This document shows, one piece after another, positions 10,870-55,309 of a stretch of 64,000 nt of DNA (position 1 is its first letter; each line of letters begins with the position of its first letter). The notes beneath the pieces are model-generated. The model was not told the origin of the DNA, did not search any database, and saw only the letters and a list, made by a program, of their open reading frames with translations. Location: contig NC_083235.1 of NCBI RefSeq assembly GCF_032191835.1, positions 18,166,001-18,230,000 of the forward strand, read 5' to 3'. The DNA is from Heteronotia binoei (lineage: Eukaryota). A program made the translations under genes and the position numbers.

Positions 10870-11805
10870 ATGGAAGACTGGGATAATGGAACCACTGTGA
10901 CTGAGTTTGTACTCATAGGCTTTCCCAGACAACTCCACATGCGCATTGCAATGTTTGTCCTCTTCTTAGCCATGTATACAGTCACCATAGTTGGGAACGG
11001 TCTCGTTGTATTATTGATTGTGGTGGATTCTCATCTCCACACACCCATGTATTTCTTCCTTTGCAACCTCTCCTTTATCGATGTCTGCTATGTCTCTACC
11101 TATGTCCCACAGGTTCTGGCAGATAGCTTCAAAGACAAAGCTGTTATACCTTGGGGCAGGTGTTCTGCACAAATGAGTGTCGGCCTTTTTCTGGGAGTGT
11201 CTGAGTATCTCTTACTAGCTGTCATGGCTTATGACCGCTTTGTGGCCATATGCAGCCCATTGCACTATAATGTAATCATGAGCCAGAAGCTGTGCATCAT
11301 ACTGGCAGTTGGCCTGTGGTGCAGCTCTTTCTTCTTGACCATTGTACCCTTTTATAGCATGCCAGCACAGTTGTGTGGCCGCAATACGGTAAATCATTTT
11401 ACATGTGAGCTCCAAGCAGTGTTGAAATTGGCTTGCTCTGACACTAAAGCCAGTGGACTTAACATGCTGATAACGAGCATCTTCACTCTTCTGTTCCCCT
11501 TTGCCTTCATCCTGCTGACTTATGGGCGCATTGGTCTAGCTGTCCTGCGCATCCGCTCAGCTGAAGGCCGGGGCAAAGCTTTATCCACCTGTGGCTCTCA
11601 TCTGGTTGTCGTGAGCATCTTCTATGGCACTGCCATGGCCGCATACCTGAGGCCTCAGGCCAAGACTTTCACAGATAGTGAAAAAATAGTGTCTATCTTT
11701 TATGGGATTGTGACCCCTATGCTCAACCCCTTGATCTACAGTCTGAGAAACAGAGATGTGAAGGGAGCCTTTTGGCGGCTGATTAGGAGGGAAACAGAGA
11801 AGTAA
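10870..11805 (+). CDS. Olfactory receptor OR-1 (class II/gamma-like), 311 aa, intact
   Basis: LHTPMYFFLCNLS, MAYDRFVAICSPLHY, KALSTCGSHL, PMLNPLIYSLRN; N-glycosylation site NGT. A splice acceptor TTTCCCTTCTACAG (ending 10864) precedes the ATG, so the ORF-track start at 10816 is probably intronic. Confidence 0.96.
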   Translation: MEDWDNGTTVTEFVLIGFPRQLHMRIAMFVLFLAMYTVTIVGNGLVVLLIVVDSHLHTPMYFFLCNLSFIDVCYVSTYVPQVLADSFKDKAVIPWGRCSAQMSVGLFLGVSEYLLLAVMAYDRFVAICSPLHYNVIMSQKLCIILAVGLWCSSFFLTIVPFYSMPAQLCGRNTVNHFTCELQAVLKLACSDTKASGLNMLITSIFTLLFPFAFILLTYGRIGLAVLRIRSAEGRGKALSTCGSHLVVVSIFYGTAMAAYLRPQAKTFTDSEKIVSIFYGIVTPMLNPLIYSLRNRDVKGAFWRLIRRETEK

Positions 11806-18839: not shown

Positions 18840-18976
18840 CAGTATCTGACCTTCCAGGGAACTGTTAGGGTTGATTTCCCTTAGAACTGACTGATTTTAT
18901 CTTCTTGCAGTCCAAGGGACTCTCAAGAGTCTTCTCCAGCACCACAATTGGAAAGCATCTATTCTTCTGCGCTCAG
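18840..18976 (-). mobile_element. RTE-BovB LINE fragment
   Basis: TTGCAGTCCAAGGGACTCTCAAGAGTCTTCTCCAGCACCAC; minus translation AERRRIDAFQLWCWRRLLRVPWTARR, the BovB ORF C-terminal motif as I recall it. Confidence 0.82.
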
Positions 18977-19110
18977 GAAGGGTCAGGGGTTTCCCTTGGC
19001 CTGTCCTGTTAGTTCAGTTTGCCCCATGCCAGTTGATGCAAGTTAATAAAGTGGTCCTGTTTATACCCAGATTGTGTTTGTTGCCTCGTTATTTCGACTG
19101 GGGGGGCAAA
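18977..19110 (+). mobile_element. 3' terminus of a YR-retrotransposon-like family; part of block 18977-19486 duplicated at ~57742-58252
   Basis: AATAAAGTGGTCC..TTGTGTTTG..CGACTGGGGGGGCAAA parallels the ends at 27953-28017 and 57810-57878. Confidence 0.65.
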
Positions 19111-19500
19111 TACTTTGTATTTTTATTTATGTTTTTCTATCTTATTTCCCCTTCCCTTTTTTGCTTCTGTAACTCTGCATTTCCTACCCTTTTTATATTC
19201 AAATTTAATAAAAAAAAATTAAAACAAACTTCCACAAATTGTAAGGCAGTTTGTGGGGGTTCATGAAGAGCAGAAAATGGCACTAAGCCACTTAAACCTC
19301 TGCTTTTTTTCTCAGGGGTTAAAATTGCAGAAAACAGGGGTTAGAATTGCTCCAAACCATGTAACCTCCAGCTGTCTCATCCCCACAGAAATGACCCCTA
19401 AGAAGAACAATTCGAGAACCCCATCCTGGTCTTGCAAAAGAGAATTTACTTGATATACTTCTCACTTTTTCACTTTAAAAAAAATTAAGTGAATGCTCGT

Positions 19501-21453: not shown

Positions 21454-22941
21454 TGAAACAAGAAATCCACAACCCACAGATAGAATCCCAATGGAAATTT
21501 CCCATGGATACAGGCCATGATGATTTTAACTTTTAATTCTGTATGCACAGCAATCTCCAAATTTTGAATTTGTATTGTGCTGAAATGTCATTGGGAATTA
21601 TAATTCTAGGAGGGAAAGAAGATGAAGATAATAGCCTGATAATAACAATCTGGGGGTGGGGGGGAGAGAAGGCATGCTAAAAAAGGCATTTCAAGCCAGG
21701 AACTGGAGTAAATCCCTTTACCAACTTTTGGATTTTTAAGATATCTAGAGAAATGTCCTCATTAACTAGTTCAATCTGAAGTGATGCAACTTCAAGTTTA
21801 CAATTTGAGCTTCTGCTCTCCTTGTCATGGCTAATTGTCTCCATGGGATGTTGTCTTCTGGGCTCCCAAAGACAAGGTCCGGCCCTTATCTAGCCGAGCC
21901 TGCTTGCAGGTATTGAGGCTGGGGGCCATCTTTGCCCCTCCCGGAAGGAGGGAGGAGCAGCATCACCCGATATATGGGTGTTTGCTGGTGCGGGGAATTG
22001 GGGCTTTATAAGCCTCGGTTCCCGCCCTCCTGCCACGCAGTTTGTTTGGCTCTCTGGGTGAGAGAGTCGGGAGCGTTGCGGCGGCGAGGGACCTGAGCGG
22101 GAGCGGTTGGACGGCGCGGCCCCGGCTCCTTCGGCTCTTTCCCTCATTCGGGCGGCGCGTGCGGCCAGCTGATCGGCGCTGCGAGGCTGAGTCTTTTTGC
22201 GCGGCGTTTTCTGGGGCCTGGGTGGACTGGGCCGGGGAGGCTTGCGCAGCTAAGCCCTTCGGGCTGTATGGGGCGCAGGCGACAGGGGAGCAGCGCTTGC
22301 GAGGCCGTGTGGGGGCAGTCCTGGGGGCCAGCTAGTGGCCCAAGCGGAGGCCAGCGTGGCGCTAGGGCTTTACGGTGCTGGGCTACAGGCCGGCCACGTT
22401 GCCTTATAAGGGGGAGGAGCACAGCGTTTCACAGTCGGTTGGTGGTCGCAAGCGCTGGGCCAGCAGTAGGCAGTAGCCTCGTGGTTGGGTTCTACGGAAA
22501 GGGGGTTCCTGGTGCCTATTAGGGCCTTCCACACGTGGAGCTGGGTGGCTGAGGCATTCGGCCTGTTAGTGTAGGCCCTGCTGGCAGGTAAACCCCTTCC
22601 CCCTCCCCCCCCCCCCCGTTTTTTTTTTTCCTTTTTTCTCTGGCCACGTTGGTTTGAGCCTGCTGGGCTAGTGGTTGGGGTGAGTTGGGCGAGGCTTTCC
22701 TGAAACGCCCCCCCCCTGACCTCCTTTCCTTGTGCACAGGGTGCAGTAGTTTGGGGCACTGCTGCCTGGGGGCTCAATTGGGGTCTCTTTTTTGGTTGGT
22801 GGGCAAGAGTGCGCGGGGACGTCTCCTTTAATTCTAACCCTCCTTCCACCACATTAATTGGCAAGGGAGTGCTGGGAGGGAACCCTTTGAGTGGGGTTGC
22901 AGTCACTCCTGCTTTTGGCCAGTGCCATAGAGGCGTTTGGG

Positions 22942-24475
22942 ATGGCACCCAAAAAAGGGCAGGGCAAATCAAAGGGCAAACAGCCCGCCCGCCCACCCCG
23001 TGGGCGGGGCCAGCAACAGCTCCCAGTGGAAGAACAGGTTGAAAGTGAGCAGGTGCGGCTGGCCATTATGGGCCAGCTGGATGCCCTAGAGCAGGAGAGA
23101 GTCGCTAGGGGTGCTCCCATTTGGGAGGGACGCCGCCGGGCCTCAGGCCGGTCAGCAAGGCTGACCTTTGAAACAGAAGTGCTCGCACGTCTTTCTGCTT
23201 TACAGGGTGGGCCAGCTGAGACCGAAACACCACTGGAACCAGACCAGGAGGAGGATCCGGAGGAGGGCCCATCGGGTGTGGCACCGGGCGGCGGTGCACC
23301 TGGCGGCAGTGAGCTTCGCACCCCAGGTGGCGCCGGGGTCTTCACGGATGACAGTGGTAAGCCCCCTTTTCAGCCAAGTCATGGGTGGCCGTGGGGCCCC
23401 ATTCAACCTCCTCCCCCCCAGCCGGTGCAGGGTGGGACATTTTGGGGTGTGGGGCAGCTAGGAGTCAGTGAGCAGTTGGGTCCTGTCCAGCCGTGGGCTT
23501 GGGGTTTTCACACACCTAGCCCGCTGCCCAACTCGGTCATTCCTCCAGTTGGCCAGCAGGCAAGCGCCATCGTGCCACCTGCTGTTTCTACCCCCCCGTC
23601 CACACCTGGCATTTTGCCGTGGGGTGGTCAGCAGTTTGCTCAGCTTCAGGGGGCTTGGCCAGTGGCTCAGGGTAGTGGGTGGTTTTACCCCCCTAACCCT
23701 AATGCCAGCATTCCCTTTCATGTCCTCCCATATGGGGATACCTCCTTACCCCTGGGTGACCATTTGACAGTCGCTACGCGGGAGAAAATTCTTTTGCGGC
23801 GAATACGTGGACGTCTTCAGTCTCCTATTCAGAGAGCTCGAAAAGAAGAATAAGGACGAGCTCGATGATAAGGAGAAGGAGAAACTGAAGAGGAGAAAAG
23901 TGGATAGATCTTGGGCGAATTGGTTGCCGGGATTTTTGATCTATGCCGGAGTCATTGCAAGAGCGCAGCCGGCTAGGGCGACCGCCCTCTTTCAATATAT
24001 AGACATTGTATATCGGGCGTACACGGACTTCGCCGGTGCAGCATGGCTGCAATATAACGAAGCTTTCCGGATGAGGGCCGCAGTTAATCCTGGAATGCCG
24101 TGGGACCAAATAAACCAGCAGCTGTGGTTGCAGCTGATGTCCCCAGCAAAACTAAATGCTGGGGACAGGTCCGATAGCGGCCATTTAGTGCTGAGGGTGC
24201 AACAACAACAACAGTCTTCTACAGGGGCCCCCATCACCGCGGGCCAGTCGGTTCAAACCCGGTTGCTTTGCTAGGAGTTCGCATCCAAGGGTGCGTGTCC
24301 CAGGAAGCCCTGTAAGTTCCGGCATGAGTGCCCTCTCTGCGGCGGACCCCACGCACTGTCGGCCTGTAGCAGATCTAAGTTTAGGCCGGGCAGCAAGCGC
24401 CCTGGGGGCGGTGGGGGCGGTCAGAACCCCCCTGGTAAAGGGGCCCAGCCCCATCCGCCTGACGGCTCTCAATAA
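22942..24475 (+). pseudogene. gag: Gag-like ORF1 of the YR element (+1 frameshift at T4 23792-23795; TAG 24272-24274 for a probable Trp)
   Basis: MAPKKGQG start; repaired reading PLGDHL..REKIL-CGEYVDVFSLL; C-terminal C(W)EFASKGACPRKPCKFRHECPLCGGPHALSAC is a CCCH plus CCHC double zinc finger typical of DIRS/Ngaro gag. Confidence 0.85.
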
Positions 24476-26056
24476 GTGGTTACGCTTATACCCGTGCACG
24501 GCTGATGCTCGGTATATGCGTGACGGGTTTAGCTTAGGTTTTCGGATTCCCTATCAGGGGCCTAGGGCCCCCTTTTTGGCTCCTAATTTGCGTTCTGTTG
24601 TTGGGCTCAAGCACGTGGTCCGGGAAAAAATAGCCAAAGAATGTCTGGAAGGAAGGGTCCTGGGACCTTTTGATGCACCCCCGTTTCCCACATTGAGGGT
24701 ATCGCCCTTGGGGTGGTTCCCAAGAAGGTTGCGGGTGAATATCGCATTATTCACCACCTGTCGTACCCTAGGGGAGCATTGGTAAATGACGCTATTCCCG
24801 AGGAATTATGCTCGGTGCGTTATACCTCCTTTGACCAGGCGGTCAAAGTGGTGCGGTCCTGCGGGATTGGGGCGGAGATGGCGAAGTGCGACATTAAGTC
24901 CGCTTTTCGCCTCTTGCCTGTTCACCCCGGGGACTTTGAGCTACTTGGTTTTTGCTTTGAGGAAAAATTTTATATGGACCGGGCTTTGCCGATGGGTTGC
25001 TCAATTTCTTGCGCGGCGTTTGAGCGCTTCAGTTCCTTTTTGGAATGGGCGCTCAGGCACAAGACCGGGGTCAATGCTACGGCGCACTACCTGGACGACT
25101 ACATTTTTGTCGGTCCAGCAGGGTCTGAGCAATGCGCCAAGTTGCTGAACGCATTTCAGGAATTAGCCCTCGAACTCGGGGTTCCCTTGGCACACGAGAA
25201 GACTGAGGGGCCAAGCACGGTCCTCACTTTTTTAGGCATTGAGCTTGACACTTTGCAACAAACGTCACGTTTGCCGGAGGCCAAGGTCGCCGACCTGAAG
25301 GCCCGGCTGGCCACTTTGAAGGGGCAGCGGAAGGTTTCGCTGCTGGAACTACAGCAGGTTGTGGGCCACCTTAACTTTGCCTGCAAAGTGGTGGCCCCAG
25401 GTAGGGCTTTTTGTAGGCGCCTTTGTGACGCTATGGGCCGGCTACGCCTCCCCCATCACAGGGCCCGCGTTACTTCTGGAATGCGAGCAGACTTGGAGGT
25501 CTGGGAGGATTTTTTGGAATCTTTCAATGGCATTTCTTTCTGGAGGGAGGATCTGAAGGTAGAAGCAGAGCTTCAGATTTCTTCTGACGCCTCCGGTGCC
25601 AACGGTTTGGGTGTATTTTTTAGAGGACATTGGTGCGCGGAGCAATGGCCCGCGGAATGGTTGGATAGCGGGCTCTGTAGGGACCTGACGTTTTTGGAAT
25701 TTTTTCCCATCCTGGTGGCCGTTTGGCTCTGGGGGGAGCAGCTAGCCAACCATTTGGTCCTCTTTTGGTGCGATAACTTGGCGGTCGTCCATGTTATCAA
25801 TTCGTTGTCTTCTAAATCGGTGTTGGTTATGAATTTGGTTAGGTCTTTCACCCTGCGTTGCCTCCGGTTGAATATTTTATTCCTGGTTAGGCACGTACCT
25901 GGGGTATGTAACGGGGTGGCGGATGCTCTGTCTCGCCAACAGATGGAGCGTTTTCGAGAACTGGCCCCAGAAGCAGATCCTTGGCCAGTGAAAATGCCAG
26001 AGGAACTGTGGCGTCTTGGGAAAAGGAAGCCGGTAGGGCCATTCAGTTGGCACTAG
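24430..26056 (+). pseudogene. pol: RT/RNaseH ORF of the YR element (1-nt deletion in G-run 24710-24713)
   Basis: PSPI..LRLYP..DGFSLGFRIPY..SPLG|VVPKK..YRIIHHLS, KCDIKSAFR, PMG, HYLDD, SDASG, LEFFP, WCDN, ADALSR. Confidence 0.93.
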
Positions 26057-26922
26057 CTCCTAGCACCAGGAAGGCGTACGACAGAGCGTCCATTCAGTTT
26101 CGGGAGTTCAGAAGTGTGGCGGCACTGCCTGACCTTTGGCCGTTCCCTGTGGAGCACATTATGCATTTCTGTGTGCACCAGAAGGAAAGAGGCCTGGGGC
26201 TGAAATCCATTCGGGGCCAACTTGCAGCATTGGCTTTTGCTAGCAAGGCCCGTGGTTTCCCTGAATATACTAGCGATTTTAGGGTTAAAAAAATGCTCGA
26301 GGGTTGGGCCCGGGAGCGGGCCCAGCGGGTTGATGATAGGCAACCTATATCCCCGTCTGTCCTTCGTGGGTTGTTTGGGGGTTGGCCCTGTGTTTGTTCC
26401 TCCCCCTTTGAAGCAGCATTGTTTCATGCTGCCTCACTGTTGGCCTTTTTTGGGGCCTTGCGTGTAAGCGAGCTGGTAGTTCAGTCCAAGGCTGATACTT
26501 CTGGGAGGGCGCTCCAATCCAAGGATATCAAAATTGCTAACAGTCAGCTTGTTCTGACAATTCGCCGGTCCAAGACTGACCAAAGGCAGAGGGGATCCGT
26601 CATCACGATCGGTATGTGCTCCATTCAGGACTTATGTCCGGTCAGGGCTGTCCGGCGTTACATTCGCGTTAGAGGGAATGTTGAAGGCCCCTTTTTAAGA
26701 CATGCCGACGGCTCCCCTCTCACCAAATATCAATTTTGGAAGGTCATAAGTAGGGCTCTGGCCAGGTTGGGTTTACAAGGCTTCAAATTTGGAACGCATT
26801 CCTTTAGGATTGGGGCGGCCTCCACAGCCGCTTCTATGGGTTACACGCCCTCTGCCATTCAGCATATAGGCCGATGGCGGTCGTCGGCTTACAAAATGTA
26901 TGTTCGCCCTTTGGTCACCTAG
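25942..26922 (+). CDS. Tyrosine recombinase, open frame; start undefined (first ATG only at 26161)
   Basis: LAPSTRKAY N-terminal domain; catalytic set GALRVSEL (R), SKTD (K), HSFR (H-x-x-R), GRW (W), AYKMY (Y). Confidence 0.94.
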   Translation, partial: DGAFSRTGPRSRSLASENARGTVASWEKEAGRAIQLALAPSTRKAYDRASIQFREFRSVAALPDLWPFPVEHIMHFCVHQKERGLGLKSIRGQLAALAFASKARGFPEYTSDFRVKKMLEGWARERAQRVDDRQPISPSVLRGLFGGWPCVCSSPFEAALFHAASLLAFFGALRVSELVVQSKADTSGRALQSKDIKIANSQLVLTIRRSKTDQRQRGSVITIGMCSIQDLCPVRAVRRYIRVRGNVEGPFLRHADGSPLTKYQFWKVISRALARLGLQGFKFGTHSFRIGAASTAASMGYTPSAIQHIGRWRSSAYKMYVRPLVT

Positions 26923-26990
26923 ATGTAGGTGGGGGGCCTGGTGGGGTTGTATTGATGTTACCGTATGCTGACAGTTGTTTGTCTTTTCAG

Positions 26991-27585
26991 GTGCTGGTGC
27001 TCGTGGTGAGAGACGTCGCGTTCTCATCTGCGGGCACAGCATGGTTTTCTGGGCTGCCCATTTCGCCAGACGGTCTTCAGTGGGCACCCAGCTTGGCCTC
27101 AGTGCGTGGGCCACTGTGGATTGGCTGGGTCGTCGGGGGCTGCGCTGGCCCGGGATCATGCCCCTGCTTTTCAGGGAATGGAAGGCAGCACCTCCACACA
27201 TTCTTGTCGTCCATTTGGGTGGGAACGACTTGGGGCTGCTGCGTGGGAAAGCTCTCTCCCAGCAGGCCTTGGCCAACCTCCGGGAAATTCGGCGGAGGTG
27301 GCCTGGGGTTATCTTGGTTTGGTCGGCAATTTTGCCACGTAGAGTGTGGAGGTATGCCATTTCACCGGGCAGTGTGGAACGAGCCAGGCGTAAGGCCAAT
27401 CGGGCTATGCAGAAGCTATGGAAGGGGGACTAGGAATCTTTCTCCCGCATCCGGCCATACGGGTCGAGCAAGTTGACCTGTATCGGCCGGATGGTGTTCA
27501 CCTTTCTGATTTGGGTAACCGGGCCTTTTTAGACGAAATTCGGCAGGGGGTGCGGTTGGCTCTGGGCCAACCATTGGGGCGCTAA
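26991..27585 (+). pseudogene. SGNH/GDSL hydrolase exon of the YR element (1-nt deletion ~27415)
   Basis: VLICGHS (block I Ser, 27038), GRRG (II), VHLGGND (III). After the frameshift: EGGLGIFLPHP..LYRPDGVHLS (block V DxxH, 27490-27501), stop TAA 27583-27585. Confidence 0.88.
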
Positions 27586-28585
27586 TGCCAAAGCAGAGGC
27601 TTGGCATTGGCGGTGGCTAGAGGAGGTTGGCCACAGGGTTTTCCAGGGGAGCACCTATGGCCTAGCACCGTTGGTGCGGTGGTCTGTATGAACCGTAGAT
27701 GGGCTACATGGCTCAGTGCGGGGATTGCAGATCACAGGGAGCCTCACCTGGGCGGATCTTTCCACAGGGATTGATGCCGGCTCGGATGGTGGTGGCTCGA
27801 GGCCTGGCCGCTCAGCTACAACCCAAATTTGGCGGGCTTGTGCTGGGGGCAGGGTGGCTCGCCCTTTGGACAAGGTGGGGTCCAGGGTTGACCCCAGGGC
27901 TTGTCTGGTCAGGTTTTCACCCCTCCTGCCAGTTACAGTTATTTAATGTTTTAATAAAGCGGCCCGGTTTTAAACCCAACACTTGTGTCTGCTTCTTCAT
28001 TCCGACTGGGGGGGCAATTATGATCTTCAGGATGGAATCTTTTAAAATGTTCATGGATAGACTATAACTGCTTTGGTGAAACCATTCTAGATTTTGCAGG
28101 CTGCAATGAAAGAGAGAATAAAGTGAGTCATGAGGTATCTTCATTTTTTAAAATTCCAGAATATAAAACCCATTCACATTTTTTTTTCAGAATGTATTCT
28201 AGAGCGTTTGAGTTCATTCACAGTTGCATTGGATGGATTTGCAAAAAAACTATTAACATTCCATGTTAGGAGTGGTCCTTGAAAGGGGATTAAATATTGA
28301 ACCATAAGCAAAGGAGGTGTAGTTCCACTGAGCTATACTTTTTATTTTTTTATGAGAAAGACATTAAGCTATGGCCCAGTTTCTAGTGGAACATGAGAAA
28401 AGTGCAGCTGCATCCCTAACACCACCAGTTAAAATGATCTGGTGGTAGATGATCGGAAAGACTTTTGGCAATTAACCAAAAGAGGACAACACTAACCTTG
28501 ACAGACTCTCAGGCAGCTTTGCATTGTTATGCTCTTAATTTGTGGATGTGAGACGGATTTCAGAAGTGTCAGAAGATTTCAGAAG

Positions 28586-36636: not shown

Positions 36637-37569
36637 ATGGGGGATAGCAACACGACCGACGTGAACGAGTTCATCTTGCTTGGGATTTCCGATCACCCCA
36701 GGGCTCAGATGGTGATGTTTGTGGTTTTTCTCATCTTCTACCTCCTCACACTATTCGGTAACAGCCTTCTCATTGCCCTAATCATTCTGAGTCCCCTTCT
36801 TCACACACCGATGTATTTCTTTCTTTGCAACCTCTCCTTCTTGGACATGTTCTACACCACCTGCAGCATTCCTCAGATGCTGATTAACTGTTTCTTCCGC
36901 CGACCCACCATATCCTATACCCGATGCATAATTGGGATGTATGTCAGTCTCCTTCTCGGCATAGCAGAGTGTTTCTTGCTGGCTGTCATGGCGTATGACC
37001 GCTTTACCGCCATATGCAACCCTTTGCATTACACCGTCATAATGAGTTGGAAGGTGTGTATCCAGTTGGCCGCCTTGTCTTGGGGCAGTGCCACTGTGAT
37101 TGCTCTGATGCCTCGGCTGCTTCAACCCACTCAGTTTTGTGGCCACAACATCATCAACCACTTCACTTGTGAGCTTCAGGCGTTCTTCAAGCTGGCTTGC
37201 TCAGATACACATGTGGTTGAGATTGTCATCATGACCAACAGCTTTATTGTCCTTGTTGTGCCCTTCAGTTTCATCTTGGTGACCTATGGGCGCATTGCCC
37301 AGGCTGTGATGCGCATGCACTCAGCCAAGGGACGAGGCAAGGCTTTTTCAACCTGTGGGTCCCATATGGTGGTGGTCAGCATCTTCTATGGATCAGCCCT
37401 CTCCATGTACTTGCGGCCTCAAAGCAAAACCATCTCTGACCTTGACAAAATTGTCTCCCTGTTTTATGGAGTGGTGACCCCAATGCTCAACCCTTTGATT
37501 TACAGCCTTAGAAATAAAGATGTGAAAGGAGCCTTTTGGAGAGTGCTTGGGAAGAAAATGCCTGAATGA
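36637..37569 (+). CDS. Olfactory receptor OR-2b, 310 aa, intact duplicate of OR-2a
   Basis: Same motifs; about 18 aa differences from OR-2a by hand count. Confidence 0.96.
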   Translation: MGDSNTTDVNEFILLGISDHPRAQMVMFVVFLIFYLLTLFGNSLLIALIILSPLLHTPMYFFLCNLSFLDMFYTTCSIPQMLINCFFRRPTISYTRCIIGMYVSLLLGIAECFLLAVMAYDRFTAICNPLHYTVIMSWKVCIQLAALSWGSATVIALMPRLLQPTQFCGHNIINHFTCELQAFFKLACSDTHVVEIVIMTNSFIVLVVPFSFILVTYGRIAQAVMRMHSAKGRGKAFSTCGSHMVVVSIFYGSALSMYLRPQSKTISDLDKIVSLFYGVVTPMLNPLIYSLRNKDVKGAFWRVLGKKMPE

Positions 37570-54352: not shown

Positions 54353-55309
54353 ATGGCAAAGCTCGATGTGTGGGATAGCAATGCCACCATGGTGACTGAG
54401 TTCACCTTGCTTGGGATTTCTGATGACCGCAGGACCCAGATGGTGTTGCTTGTGGTATTCTCTCTATTCTACCTTGCTACACTGTTTGGTAATAGCTTTC
54501 TCATTGTACTGATCATATTGAGCCCTCTTCTTCACACACCAATGTACTTCTTCCTCTGCAACCTCTCCTTCTTGGACATGTTCTACACTACCAGCAGCAT
54601 CCCACAGTTACTGGTCAACTGCTTCTTCCACCGACTCACCATATCCTATATCCAATGCATAACTGAGATGTACGTCAGTCTCTTTCTTGGCATGGCAGAA
54701 TGTTTCTTGCTGGCTGTCATGGCGTATGACCGCTTTGCCGCTGTGTGTAGCCCTTTGCGTTACACCATCATCATGAGTTGGAAGGCATGTATCCATTTGG
54801 CGGCCTCGTCTTGGGCTGGTGCCTTTTTCATGACGCTAATCCCCAGGCTATTTCAACCCACTCAGTTTTGTGGACACAACATCATCAACCACTTCATTTG
54901 TGAGCTGCAGGCGTTCCTCAAGCTGGCTTGCTCAGACACACGTGTGATTGAGGCTGTGGTCATGATCAACAGCCTTATTGTCCTTGTTGTGCCCTTCAGT
55001 TTCATCTTGGTGACCTATGGGCGCATTGCCCAGGCTGTGATGCGCATGCACTCAGCCAAGGGACGAGGCAAGGCTTTTTCAACCTGTGGGTCCCATCTGG
55101 TGGTGGTCAGCATCTTCTATGGATCAGCCCTCTCCATGTACTTGCGGCCTCAAGGCAAAACCATCTCTGACCTTGACAAAATTGTCTCCCTGTTTTATGG
55201 AGCGGTGACCCCAATGCTCAACCCTTTGATTTACAGCTTTAGAAATAAAGATGTGAAAGGAGCCTTTTGGCGACTACTTGGGAAGAAAATGAAGACTTTG
55301 CCCTCCTAA
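54353..55309 (+). CDS. Olfactory receptor OR-3, 318 aa, intact (OR-2 subfamily)
   Basis: LHTPMYFFLCNLS, MAYDRFAAVCSPLRY, KAFSTCGSHL, PMLNPLIYSFRN. A pyrimidine tract and AG precede ATG 54353; start may alternatively be a later Met. Confidence 0.94.
   Translation: MAKLDVWDSNATMVTEFTLLGISDDRRTQMVLLVVFSLFYLATLFGNSFLIVLIILSPLLHTPMYFFLCNLSFLDMFYTTSSIPQLLVNCFFHRLTISYIQCITEMYVSLFLGMAECFLLAVMAYDRFAAVCSPLRYTIIMSWKACIHLAASSWAGAFFMTLIPRLFQPTQFCGHNIINHFICELQAFLKLACSDTRVIEAVVMINSLIVLVVPFSFILVTYGRIAQAVMRMHSAKGRGKAFSTCGSHLVVVSIFYGSALSMYLRPQGKTISDLDKIVSLFYGAVTPMLNPLIYSFRNKDVKGAFWRLLGKKMKTLPS

Follow-up and report, generated by a model that had tools for sequence, protein, structure and literature searches.

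Probable splicing of one Gag leader onto the recombinase and the hydrolase of a gecko Ngaro retrotransposon

The DNA stretch analyzed here (the window) comprises 64,000 nucleotides (nt) of the gecko Heteronotia binoei (NCBI RefSeq assembly GCF_032191835.1, contig NC_083235.1, positions 18,166,001 to 18,230,000 of the forward strand). Positions 21874-28017 of the window are one copy of an abundant gecko Ngaro retrotransposon, an element that encodes a tyrosine recombinase (YR); a 601-base probe from it gave 2,553 first-look candidates in the gecko genome, 40 of which were scored. The gene order in this copy is gag, pol (a reverse transcriptase [RT] plus an RNase H), YR, and SGNH hydrolase, and the last two genes appear to be expressed as second exons behind a leader taken from gag. 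The features of the copy are as follows.

21874..22056, + strand: repeat A1, the 5′ end of the element, which recurs as A2 near the 3′ end of full copies
22942..23356, + strand: shared leader exon, coding segment (residues 1-138 of Gag and 1 nt more), with a basic N terminus, two predicted helices, and a flexible linker
23357..23362, + strand: splice donor GTAAGC, phase 1, present in 34 of 34 aligned family copies
23357..24475, + strand: remaining part of gag with a C-terminal zinc knuckle, broken (indel near 23795, stop at 24272-24274)
24195..26056, + strand: pol (RT and RNase H), in the +1 frame relative to gag; ATG at 24324, conserved part from KGPSP at 24438, broken near 24713
24368..24384, + strand: weak AGs, candidate pol acceptors, not kept across families
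25925..25942, + strand: YR acceptor within the RNase H motif ADALSRxQ; its CAG is the Gln codon; phase 1
25943..26922, + strand: tyrosine recombinase exon (PF00589); predicted spliced product of 464 amino acids
26967..26990, + strand: SGNH acceptor in a noncoding spacer, with branch-like motif, pyrimidine tract, and CAG; phase 1
26991..27585, + strand: SGNH hydrolase exon (PF13472), broken near 27412; predicted spliced product of 336 amino acids in intact copies
27615..28017, + strand: repeat B1, with AATAAA at 27953-27958; the end of the window copy

The YR open reading frame (ORF) was identified by Pfam PF00589 (E value of 8.5e-7) and thus encodes a tyrosine recombinase rather than a DDE integrase. 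The pol ORF, which follows a gag-like ORF, contains an RT recognized by Pfam PF00078 and an RNase H recognized by motif only. No methyltransferase domain follows the RNase H; pol ends 38 codons past the ADALSRxQ motif, and Pfam gives RVT_1 only. The ORF after YR is an SGNH hydrolase of the amphibian type (PF13472), and in intact copies its 204-codon frame carries GHS, GGND, and DGVH motifs. Two direct repeats, A (184 bp) and B (403 bp), are split and arranged as A1 .. B1-A2-B2; both were present in 26 of the 39 fetched family copies, and self-comparison of these 39 copies found direct repeats only, with no DIRS1-like inverted terminal repeats or internal complementary region. The assignment to Ngaro rests on the split direct repeats, the hydrolase, and the missing methyltransferase, which fits the part of PMC9210276 consulted. 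In intact copies, gag encodes 523 to 529 amino acids, pol encodes about 620 amino acids in the +1 frame relative to gag, YR has 336 codons in the −1 frame relative to pol, and SGNH follows after a short spacer. Compared to the copy L038, the window copy is broken in gag, pol, and SGNH by indels near 23795, 24713, and 27412, respectively, its gag frame also meets the stop at 24272-24274, and it ends after B1 without the A2-B2 end of full copies. The original prediction, made from the sequence of this stretch by itself, did not notice the broken ORFs or the missing A2-B2.

That prediction held that one donor within gag is joined to phase-matched acceptors in front of YR, SGNH, and possibly RT, and its main coordinates were borne out when 372 GT and 396 AG sites were ranked by simple weight matrices. 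The gag ATG is at 22942, and the donor GTG/GTAAGC (the slash marks the junction here and below) ends the exon at 23356 after 415 nt, i.e., 138 codons plus 1 nt (phase 1), ranking 5th of the 372 GT sites. The SGNH acceptor at 26990 is in phase 1 and ranks 3rd of the 396 AG sites; the YR acceptor at 25942 is also in phase 1 and ranks 21st. The first ATG in the YR frame is at 26161, as stated, and the first in the SGNH frame, at 27041, lies directly after the serine of the G-H-S motif. The broader statement that none of the downstream frames has a usable ATG is true for YR and SGNH of the window copy but false for pol, where the first ATG had been placed at 24516 and is actually at 24324, upstream of PSPI, and false for YR in some subfamilies. 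Similarly, the branch-like GCTGAC before SGNH is present in the window copy, but most family copies read GTTGAC.

Three lines of evidence support the splicing of the leader onto YR and onto SGNH: the conservation of the sites, fusion proteins in databases, and intron-less genomic copies of a sister family. First, with respect to conservation, the donor GTG/GTAAGC was found in 34 of 34 aligned copies of the family and was in phase 1 in 33 of them. When sister families with leaders down to about 40% identity were added, giving a total of 121 unspliced copies scored, the best-scoring donor located 90 to 240 nt past the second leader helix was in phase 1 in 110 of 111 copies (10 copies lacked the anchor), with G/GTA at 107 of these phase-1 best donors. 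The best AG before SGNH was in phase 1 in 111 of 112 copies (9 without the anchor), although the spacer is wholly different between families. At the YR acceptor, the Gln codon of ADALSRxQ was CAG in 107 of 107 copies (14 without the anchor), compared to a background of 533 CAG among 731 Gln codons (74 copies), and the codon preceding it takes eight forms.

The same trends were apparent in much more distant elements. Eighty metagenome loci with YRs that are 28 to 42% identical formed 62 clusters; RT, YR, and the motif were all present in 46 of them. The best AG within −30 to +90 nt of the YR site was in phase 1 in 41 of these 46 clusters (P = 5e-15 versus one third), compared to 81 of 275 for equal windows inside RT. 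Where the Gln was present at the YR site, it was encoded by CAG in 27 of 27 distant clusters versus 285 of 550 Gln codons elsewhere in RT (P = 5e-8); where it was absent, the best acceptor was shifted by 6 to 30 nt and was mostly still in phase 1. For SGNH, the best AG was in phase 1 in 15 of 19 distant loci (unclustered), a count that left out two loci with SGNH upstream and one second fragment. Two metagenome loci, L110 and L124, have an SGNH frame ∼5 kb upstream of YR and before RT, which may reflect another gene order or a tandem neighbor. The comparison of further copies proposed with the original prediction found the donor and its phase conserved in the gecko genome, and the YR and SGNH sites and their phases conserved there and in distant elements, in each case beyond chance.

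Second, proteins of the predicted kind exist among database gene models. A search with the SGNH protein gave 42 matches, and a search with YR gave 488, of which 120 were listed; predicted fusion lengths were among them, and the leader-YR fusion proteins of other lizards measure 449 to 531 amino acids. A profile of 14 gecko leaders matched 26 of 282 fetched proteins (12 at E < 0.001 and the rest at a loose cutoff), namely, 12 leader-SGNH proteins, 13 leader-YR proteins, and 1 full gag-pol model. Leader-bearing models came from eight lizard genera, Eublepharis, Gekko, Rhineura, Elgaria, Anolis, Pogona, Hemicordylus, and Tiliqua. Proteins sharing the same leader diverge at the donor. A good example of this is the set P0164 (gag, ..EDT/GK), P0046 (YR, ..EDT/DGA), and P0009 (SGNH, ..EDT/GVV); P0014/P0045 and P0026/P0076 part at the same point, as do the Anolis gag protein P0346 (..PSTST/GN) and YR protein P0070 (..PSTST/DGA). 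Past the divergence point, gag continues with GK or GN, as G/GTAA reads, whereas YR continues with D or G and SGNH with G or D. The residue lying 37 positions ahead of the LAP anchor, which corresponds to the acceptor position in the window, was D or G in 21 of the 23 YR proteins examined, including one sea star model, and in these 21 the preceding sequence differs from the unspliced frame. A D at the YR junction was rejected as evidence by itself, because the unspliced frame yields D too. P0351 and P0352, two isoforms from one Eublepharis locus, are distinguished by one extra Ala at the YR junction, a difference expected of tandem acceptors; RefSeq bases isoform pairs of this sort on transcript alignments. 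The exon structure was checked for one protein, the RefSeq model P0323, which maps at 100% to the locus L190 as 126 codons plus G/GTAGGT ... TTTAG/ SGNH. The intron, 3.5 kb long with GT..AG ends and in phase 1, contains the remainder of gag together with pol and YR. In two other models, P0288 and P0336, the leader is joined to an integrase-like part of another element or to a host-like C terminus; the donor may splice into neighbors, or these may be annotation chimeras.

Third, copies without the intron were found when natural fusion proteins were searched against the gecko genome for matches running through the junction. One of the 123 matches listed with P0323 and one of the 91 listed with P0045 crossed it, and a DNA search with the copy found by P0323 gave a second copy of the same kind among 41 matches, while its relatives end at the junction base. 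In two of the three copies, L191 (C21) and L209 (C9), the leader is joined to SGNH; in the third, L224 (C2), it is joined to YR, and the part that forms the SGNH intron is retained. Compared to the unspliced relatives L200-L213, each join removes exactly G/GTAAGT .. AG/ with one shared G, and the leaders of the three copies are only 77 to 79% alike. L191 has A1 and the B1-A2-B2 end to the last base of B2, past the AATAAA and without a poly(A) tail; in L209, B2 is cut; and L224 has A1 and ends after B1. The element's own enzymes probably produced these copies by reverse transcription of spliced germ line RNA. Ten loci with long open YR frames were also considered as spliced copies but turned out to be ordinary or frameshifted elements and were rejected.

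Taken together, we put the probability that YR and SGNH are made by splicing the Gag leader onto each at about 90%. For these two proteins the idea of one Gag leader fused alternatively to different enzymes is strongly supported; for RT it is not. Several observations weigh against even the two-protein reading. All three intron-less copies belong to a sister family rather than to the family of the window, and exact junction probes detected no spliced copy of the window's own family in the gecko genome. The copies and families compared are related, so that the counts given above are not independent events, and the supporting evidence behind the database gene models is not visible. The score of the YR acceptor is modest. 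Two axolotl YR models, which account for the remaining 2 of the 23 proteins, have a Gag-like start and a join that is not at the lizard position. YR has an in-frame ATG at codon 24 in one subfamily, and in sister families there is a YR ATG 20 to 40 codons past ADALSR, at family-specific positions. Finally, in the RNA data, assembled contigs from three runs of one study, no predicted joint was present among the 15 of 17 joints listed, a result that is uninformative; the contigs cover the element evenly, as DNA would. Contigs of the run X1 join the end of gag (24466/24470) to the SGNH spacer (26964) near shared CTGAC words. These joints were rejected as splices, since intron sequence is kept, and perhaps represent a deleted gag-SGNH derivative or an assembly artifact.

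Of the other explanations, the one that survives best is the full form of the original model, in which the same donor would also be spliced to AGs at 24369, 24372, and 24384 to give a leader-RT protein. We consider it unlikely. These AGs are in phase 1, as had been noted, but they rank only 77th, 63rd, and 159th, not above chance. Of the 121 copies, 93 could be scored (28 could not), and 82 of the 93 retain one or both of two AGs that follow the final Cys of the zinc knuckle; in a few families the pyrimidine tract at this place is good (score of 5 to 6; L218, L219, and L223). However, Ser/Arg codons of Gag are the source of these AGs, and 11 of the 93 copies have neither, among them most copies of two sister families. 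Among the distant elements, grouped by eye, a phase-1 best AG ahead of RT was seen in 10 of 12 without an overlap of gag and pol, and in 6 of 19, a chance-level figure, with the same gag/pol overlap as here. Non-overlapping elements with such a phase-1 acceptor are L123, L129, L131, L136, L140, L141, L145, L146, L154, and L166, and a three-way splice may hold there. No leader-RT fusion was found among the 120 listed of 505 RT matches or in 68 leader-bearing representatives, although pol RNA may be too rare for annotation, and gapped probes gave no leader-pol genomic copy, the single match keeping the donor. The pol splice, flagged from the start as possibly a chance match, is thus unsupported: its AGs score low and are not conserved, the searches above gave no leader-RT fusion among either proteins or genomic copies, and the pol frame has its own ATG at 24324.

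Our guess is that pol is made otherwise, by a +1 shift out of gag or from an internal start in the zinc-knuckle region. The pol-frame ATGs derive from CAT codons for His in Gag; one lies at most 130 nt from KGPSP in 61 of 68 copies but is missing in others. In the 19 distant elements the pol frame is open for a median of 303 nt before RT, but synonymous shuffling of gag gives the same open length (combined P = 0.52), and this measure is therefore uninformative on the point of entry into pol. At 24434-24452 of the window, Gag and pol both read K-G over the same AAAGGG run in nearly all copies. This run at the conserved start of pol may be a +1 slip site or may reflect only the constraint on pol. 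A 5′ untranslated region (UTR) intron (donor at 22587, acceptor at 22739) together with a foamy virus-like pol RNA was also considered and rejected, since that donor is not conserved from copy to copy.

Programmed −1 frameshifting by the ribosome where YR overlaps pol, which would yield an RT-RH-YR polyprotein and make the splice sites incidental, is highly improbable as the main route to YR. Poulter and Butler (2015), in the lines quoted in PMC13003380, considered YR to be probably translated by programmed frameshifting in the overlap, and YR does overlap the end of pol in the −1 frame here (median of 142 nt). A conserved X XXY YYZ heptamer, as a −1 frameshift pair would have, was not found: 95 of 107 gecko copies, the window family included, and 41 of 46 distant clusters lack any canonical slippery heptamer, and in the other 12 copies and 5 clusters its position varies. 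Frameshifting also leaves unexplained the fixed CAG, the copy L224, and the fusion proteins, as well as SGNH, which has no YR overlap here. It may be a minor route beside splicing.

We find it hardly credible that YR and SGNH instead each have a transcript and an ATG start to themselves and that functionless cryptic splicing accounts for the gene models and the intron-less copies. Several subfamilies have an early in-frame YR ATG, but its position depends on the family and in many copies no such ATG occurs ahead of residue 80, the first SGNH ATG lies past the catalytic serine, and the YR acceptor and its phase are kept in elements only 28 to 42% identical in YR. Lastly, although internal deletions are common in the same sister family (L203, L210, and L234), the probability is negligible that the three intron-less copies arose by random deletion of DNA or by misassembly, as the L210 and L234 deletions leave the donor GTAAGT in place and break elsewhere, whereas the three joins use the same donor base, two acceptors exactly, and one shared base in leaders that differ by >20%.

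Splicing of the Gag leader would work as follows. Full Gag would be translated from the unspliced RNA. The donor, in phase 1 behind codon 138 of Gag, would be joined either to the acceptor in the RNase H coding sequence, giving a leader-recombinase of 464 amino acids, or to the acceptor in the spacer before the hydrolase, giving a leader-SGNH protein of 336 amino acids, so that one RNA would yield three proteins with one common start. The window's family would splice like the sister family. The basic two-helix leader is predicted to direct both recombinase and esterase to the Gag particle or to the nucleus, a putative role as a packaging or nuclear tag. A structural model of the leader (copy L040) has helices at residues 29-55 and 70-88 with a predicted template modeling score (pTM) of 0.31, and the prediction of a complex of two leader copies scored 0.02, which is uninformative. 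We lean slightly toward a wider reading, in which the whole Ngaro superfamily, from marine invertebrates to lizards, inherited from its ancestor a plan of expression by splicing from one Gag leader. This leader would then be a packaging tag on the recombinase and the esterase (and on RT where gag and pol do not overlap), the acceptor in the RNase H motif would be hundreds of millions of years old, and spliced RNAs would be mobilized as nonautonomous elements.

These results matter for several reasons. The expression of the Ngaro recombinase was previously a guess (frameshifting, in a review), and splicing is favored by the present data. Both enzymes, recombinase and hydrolase, are predicted to carry about 140 Gag residues that ORF-based annotation has missed, and the leader-bearing forms would be the ones needed for enzyme expression or a Ngaro assay. 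The role of the hydrolase becomes testable, many "uncharacterized" lizard gene models are explained as transposon products, and a class of intron-less nonautonomous copies is revealed.

Other observations concern the element's ends, its 5′ UTR, and its surroundings. Many copies (the window copy, L032, L036-L038, L049, L051, and L065) stop after B1 and lack A2-B2, the outcome expected of a B1-B2 recombination. The 5′ UTR (21874-22941 in the window, ∼1 kb) diverges fast between subfamilies, yet it is free of ATGs in many young copies. One subfamily (L037, L042, L044-L047, L049-L051, and L062) has a tRNA-like insertion of ∼150 to 220 nt with an A-rich middle in the 5′ UTR, ∼40 nt before the gag ATG; it has spread, and several members have identical terminal repeats. 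Positions 18976-19112 hold a short relic of the B-repeat end from a sister Ngaro family. Receptor-like motifs (MAYDR.., PMLNP..) occur at 11224-11750, 16287, 19765, 36988-37510, and 54719-55240; we take them to be olfactory receptor-like, which would place the element within a receptor gene cluster.

The kind of element is already known, and its expression plan is apparently undescribed; no description of a spliced leader was found in the literature on these elements, a search that did not cover a 2004 paper, the 2015 review, Repbase, and supplements. The plan nevertheless resembles known systems in part. Retroviral and gypsy env or accessory mRNAs use one major donor with alternative acceptors, the unspliced RNA being the genome. 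The present element would share the single donor, the alternative acceptors, the unspliced genome RNA, and an acceptor hidden in pol coding sequence. It differs in that the donor lies 138 codons into gag, so that a whole domain is shared, in that the predicted spliced products are an integration enzyme and an esterase, and in the lack of long terminal repeats. In the Ty1/Copia element EVD of Arabidopsis, conserved alternative splicing likewise sets the protein output of a retrotransposon, but there it yields a short Gag-only RNA, according to the consulted part of PMC5580714, whereas here it would give fusion enzymes and skip pol. The ORF1 protein of the long interspersed nuclear element (LINE) ZfL2-1, in which a helical dimerizing part is linked to a lipid-binding SGNH esterase, and other esterase-bearing LINE ORF1 proteins resemble the predicted leader-SGNH protein in their basic N terminus, helical part, poorly conserved linker, and SGNH domain, as far as the consulted part of PMC3905857 describes them. 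ZfL2-1 encodes this protein in a single ORF, whereas here splicing would build it and the same leader would head Gag and YR; self-association of the leader is only putative. The frameshift model of Poulter and Butler (2015), as quoted in PMC13003380, starts from an identical arrangement, with YR overlapping the RT/RH end in the −1 frame, but the overlap here holds a splice acceptor and no conserved slippery site. The closest relative in layout is the Xenopus Ngaro element DIRS-53_XT, which has a hydrolase ORF, the same order of gag, RT/RH, YR, and SGNH, and the same A1 .. B1-A2-B2 repeats (184/403 bp here and 236/152 bp there). In PMC9210276, where "splic" and "intron" do not occur, it is described as having four overlapping ORFs, whereas YR and SGNH of the gecko element would be second exons of Gag-leader fusions.

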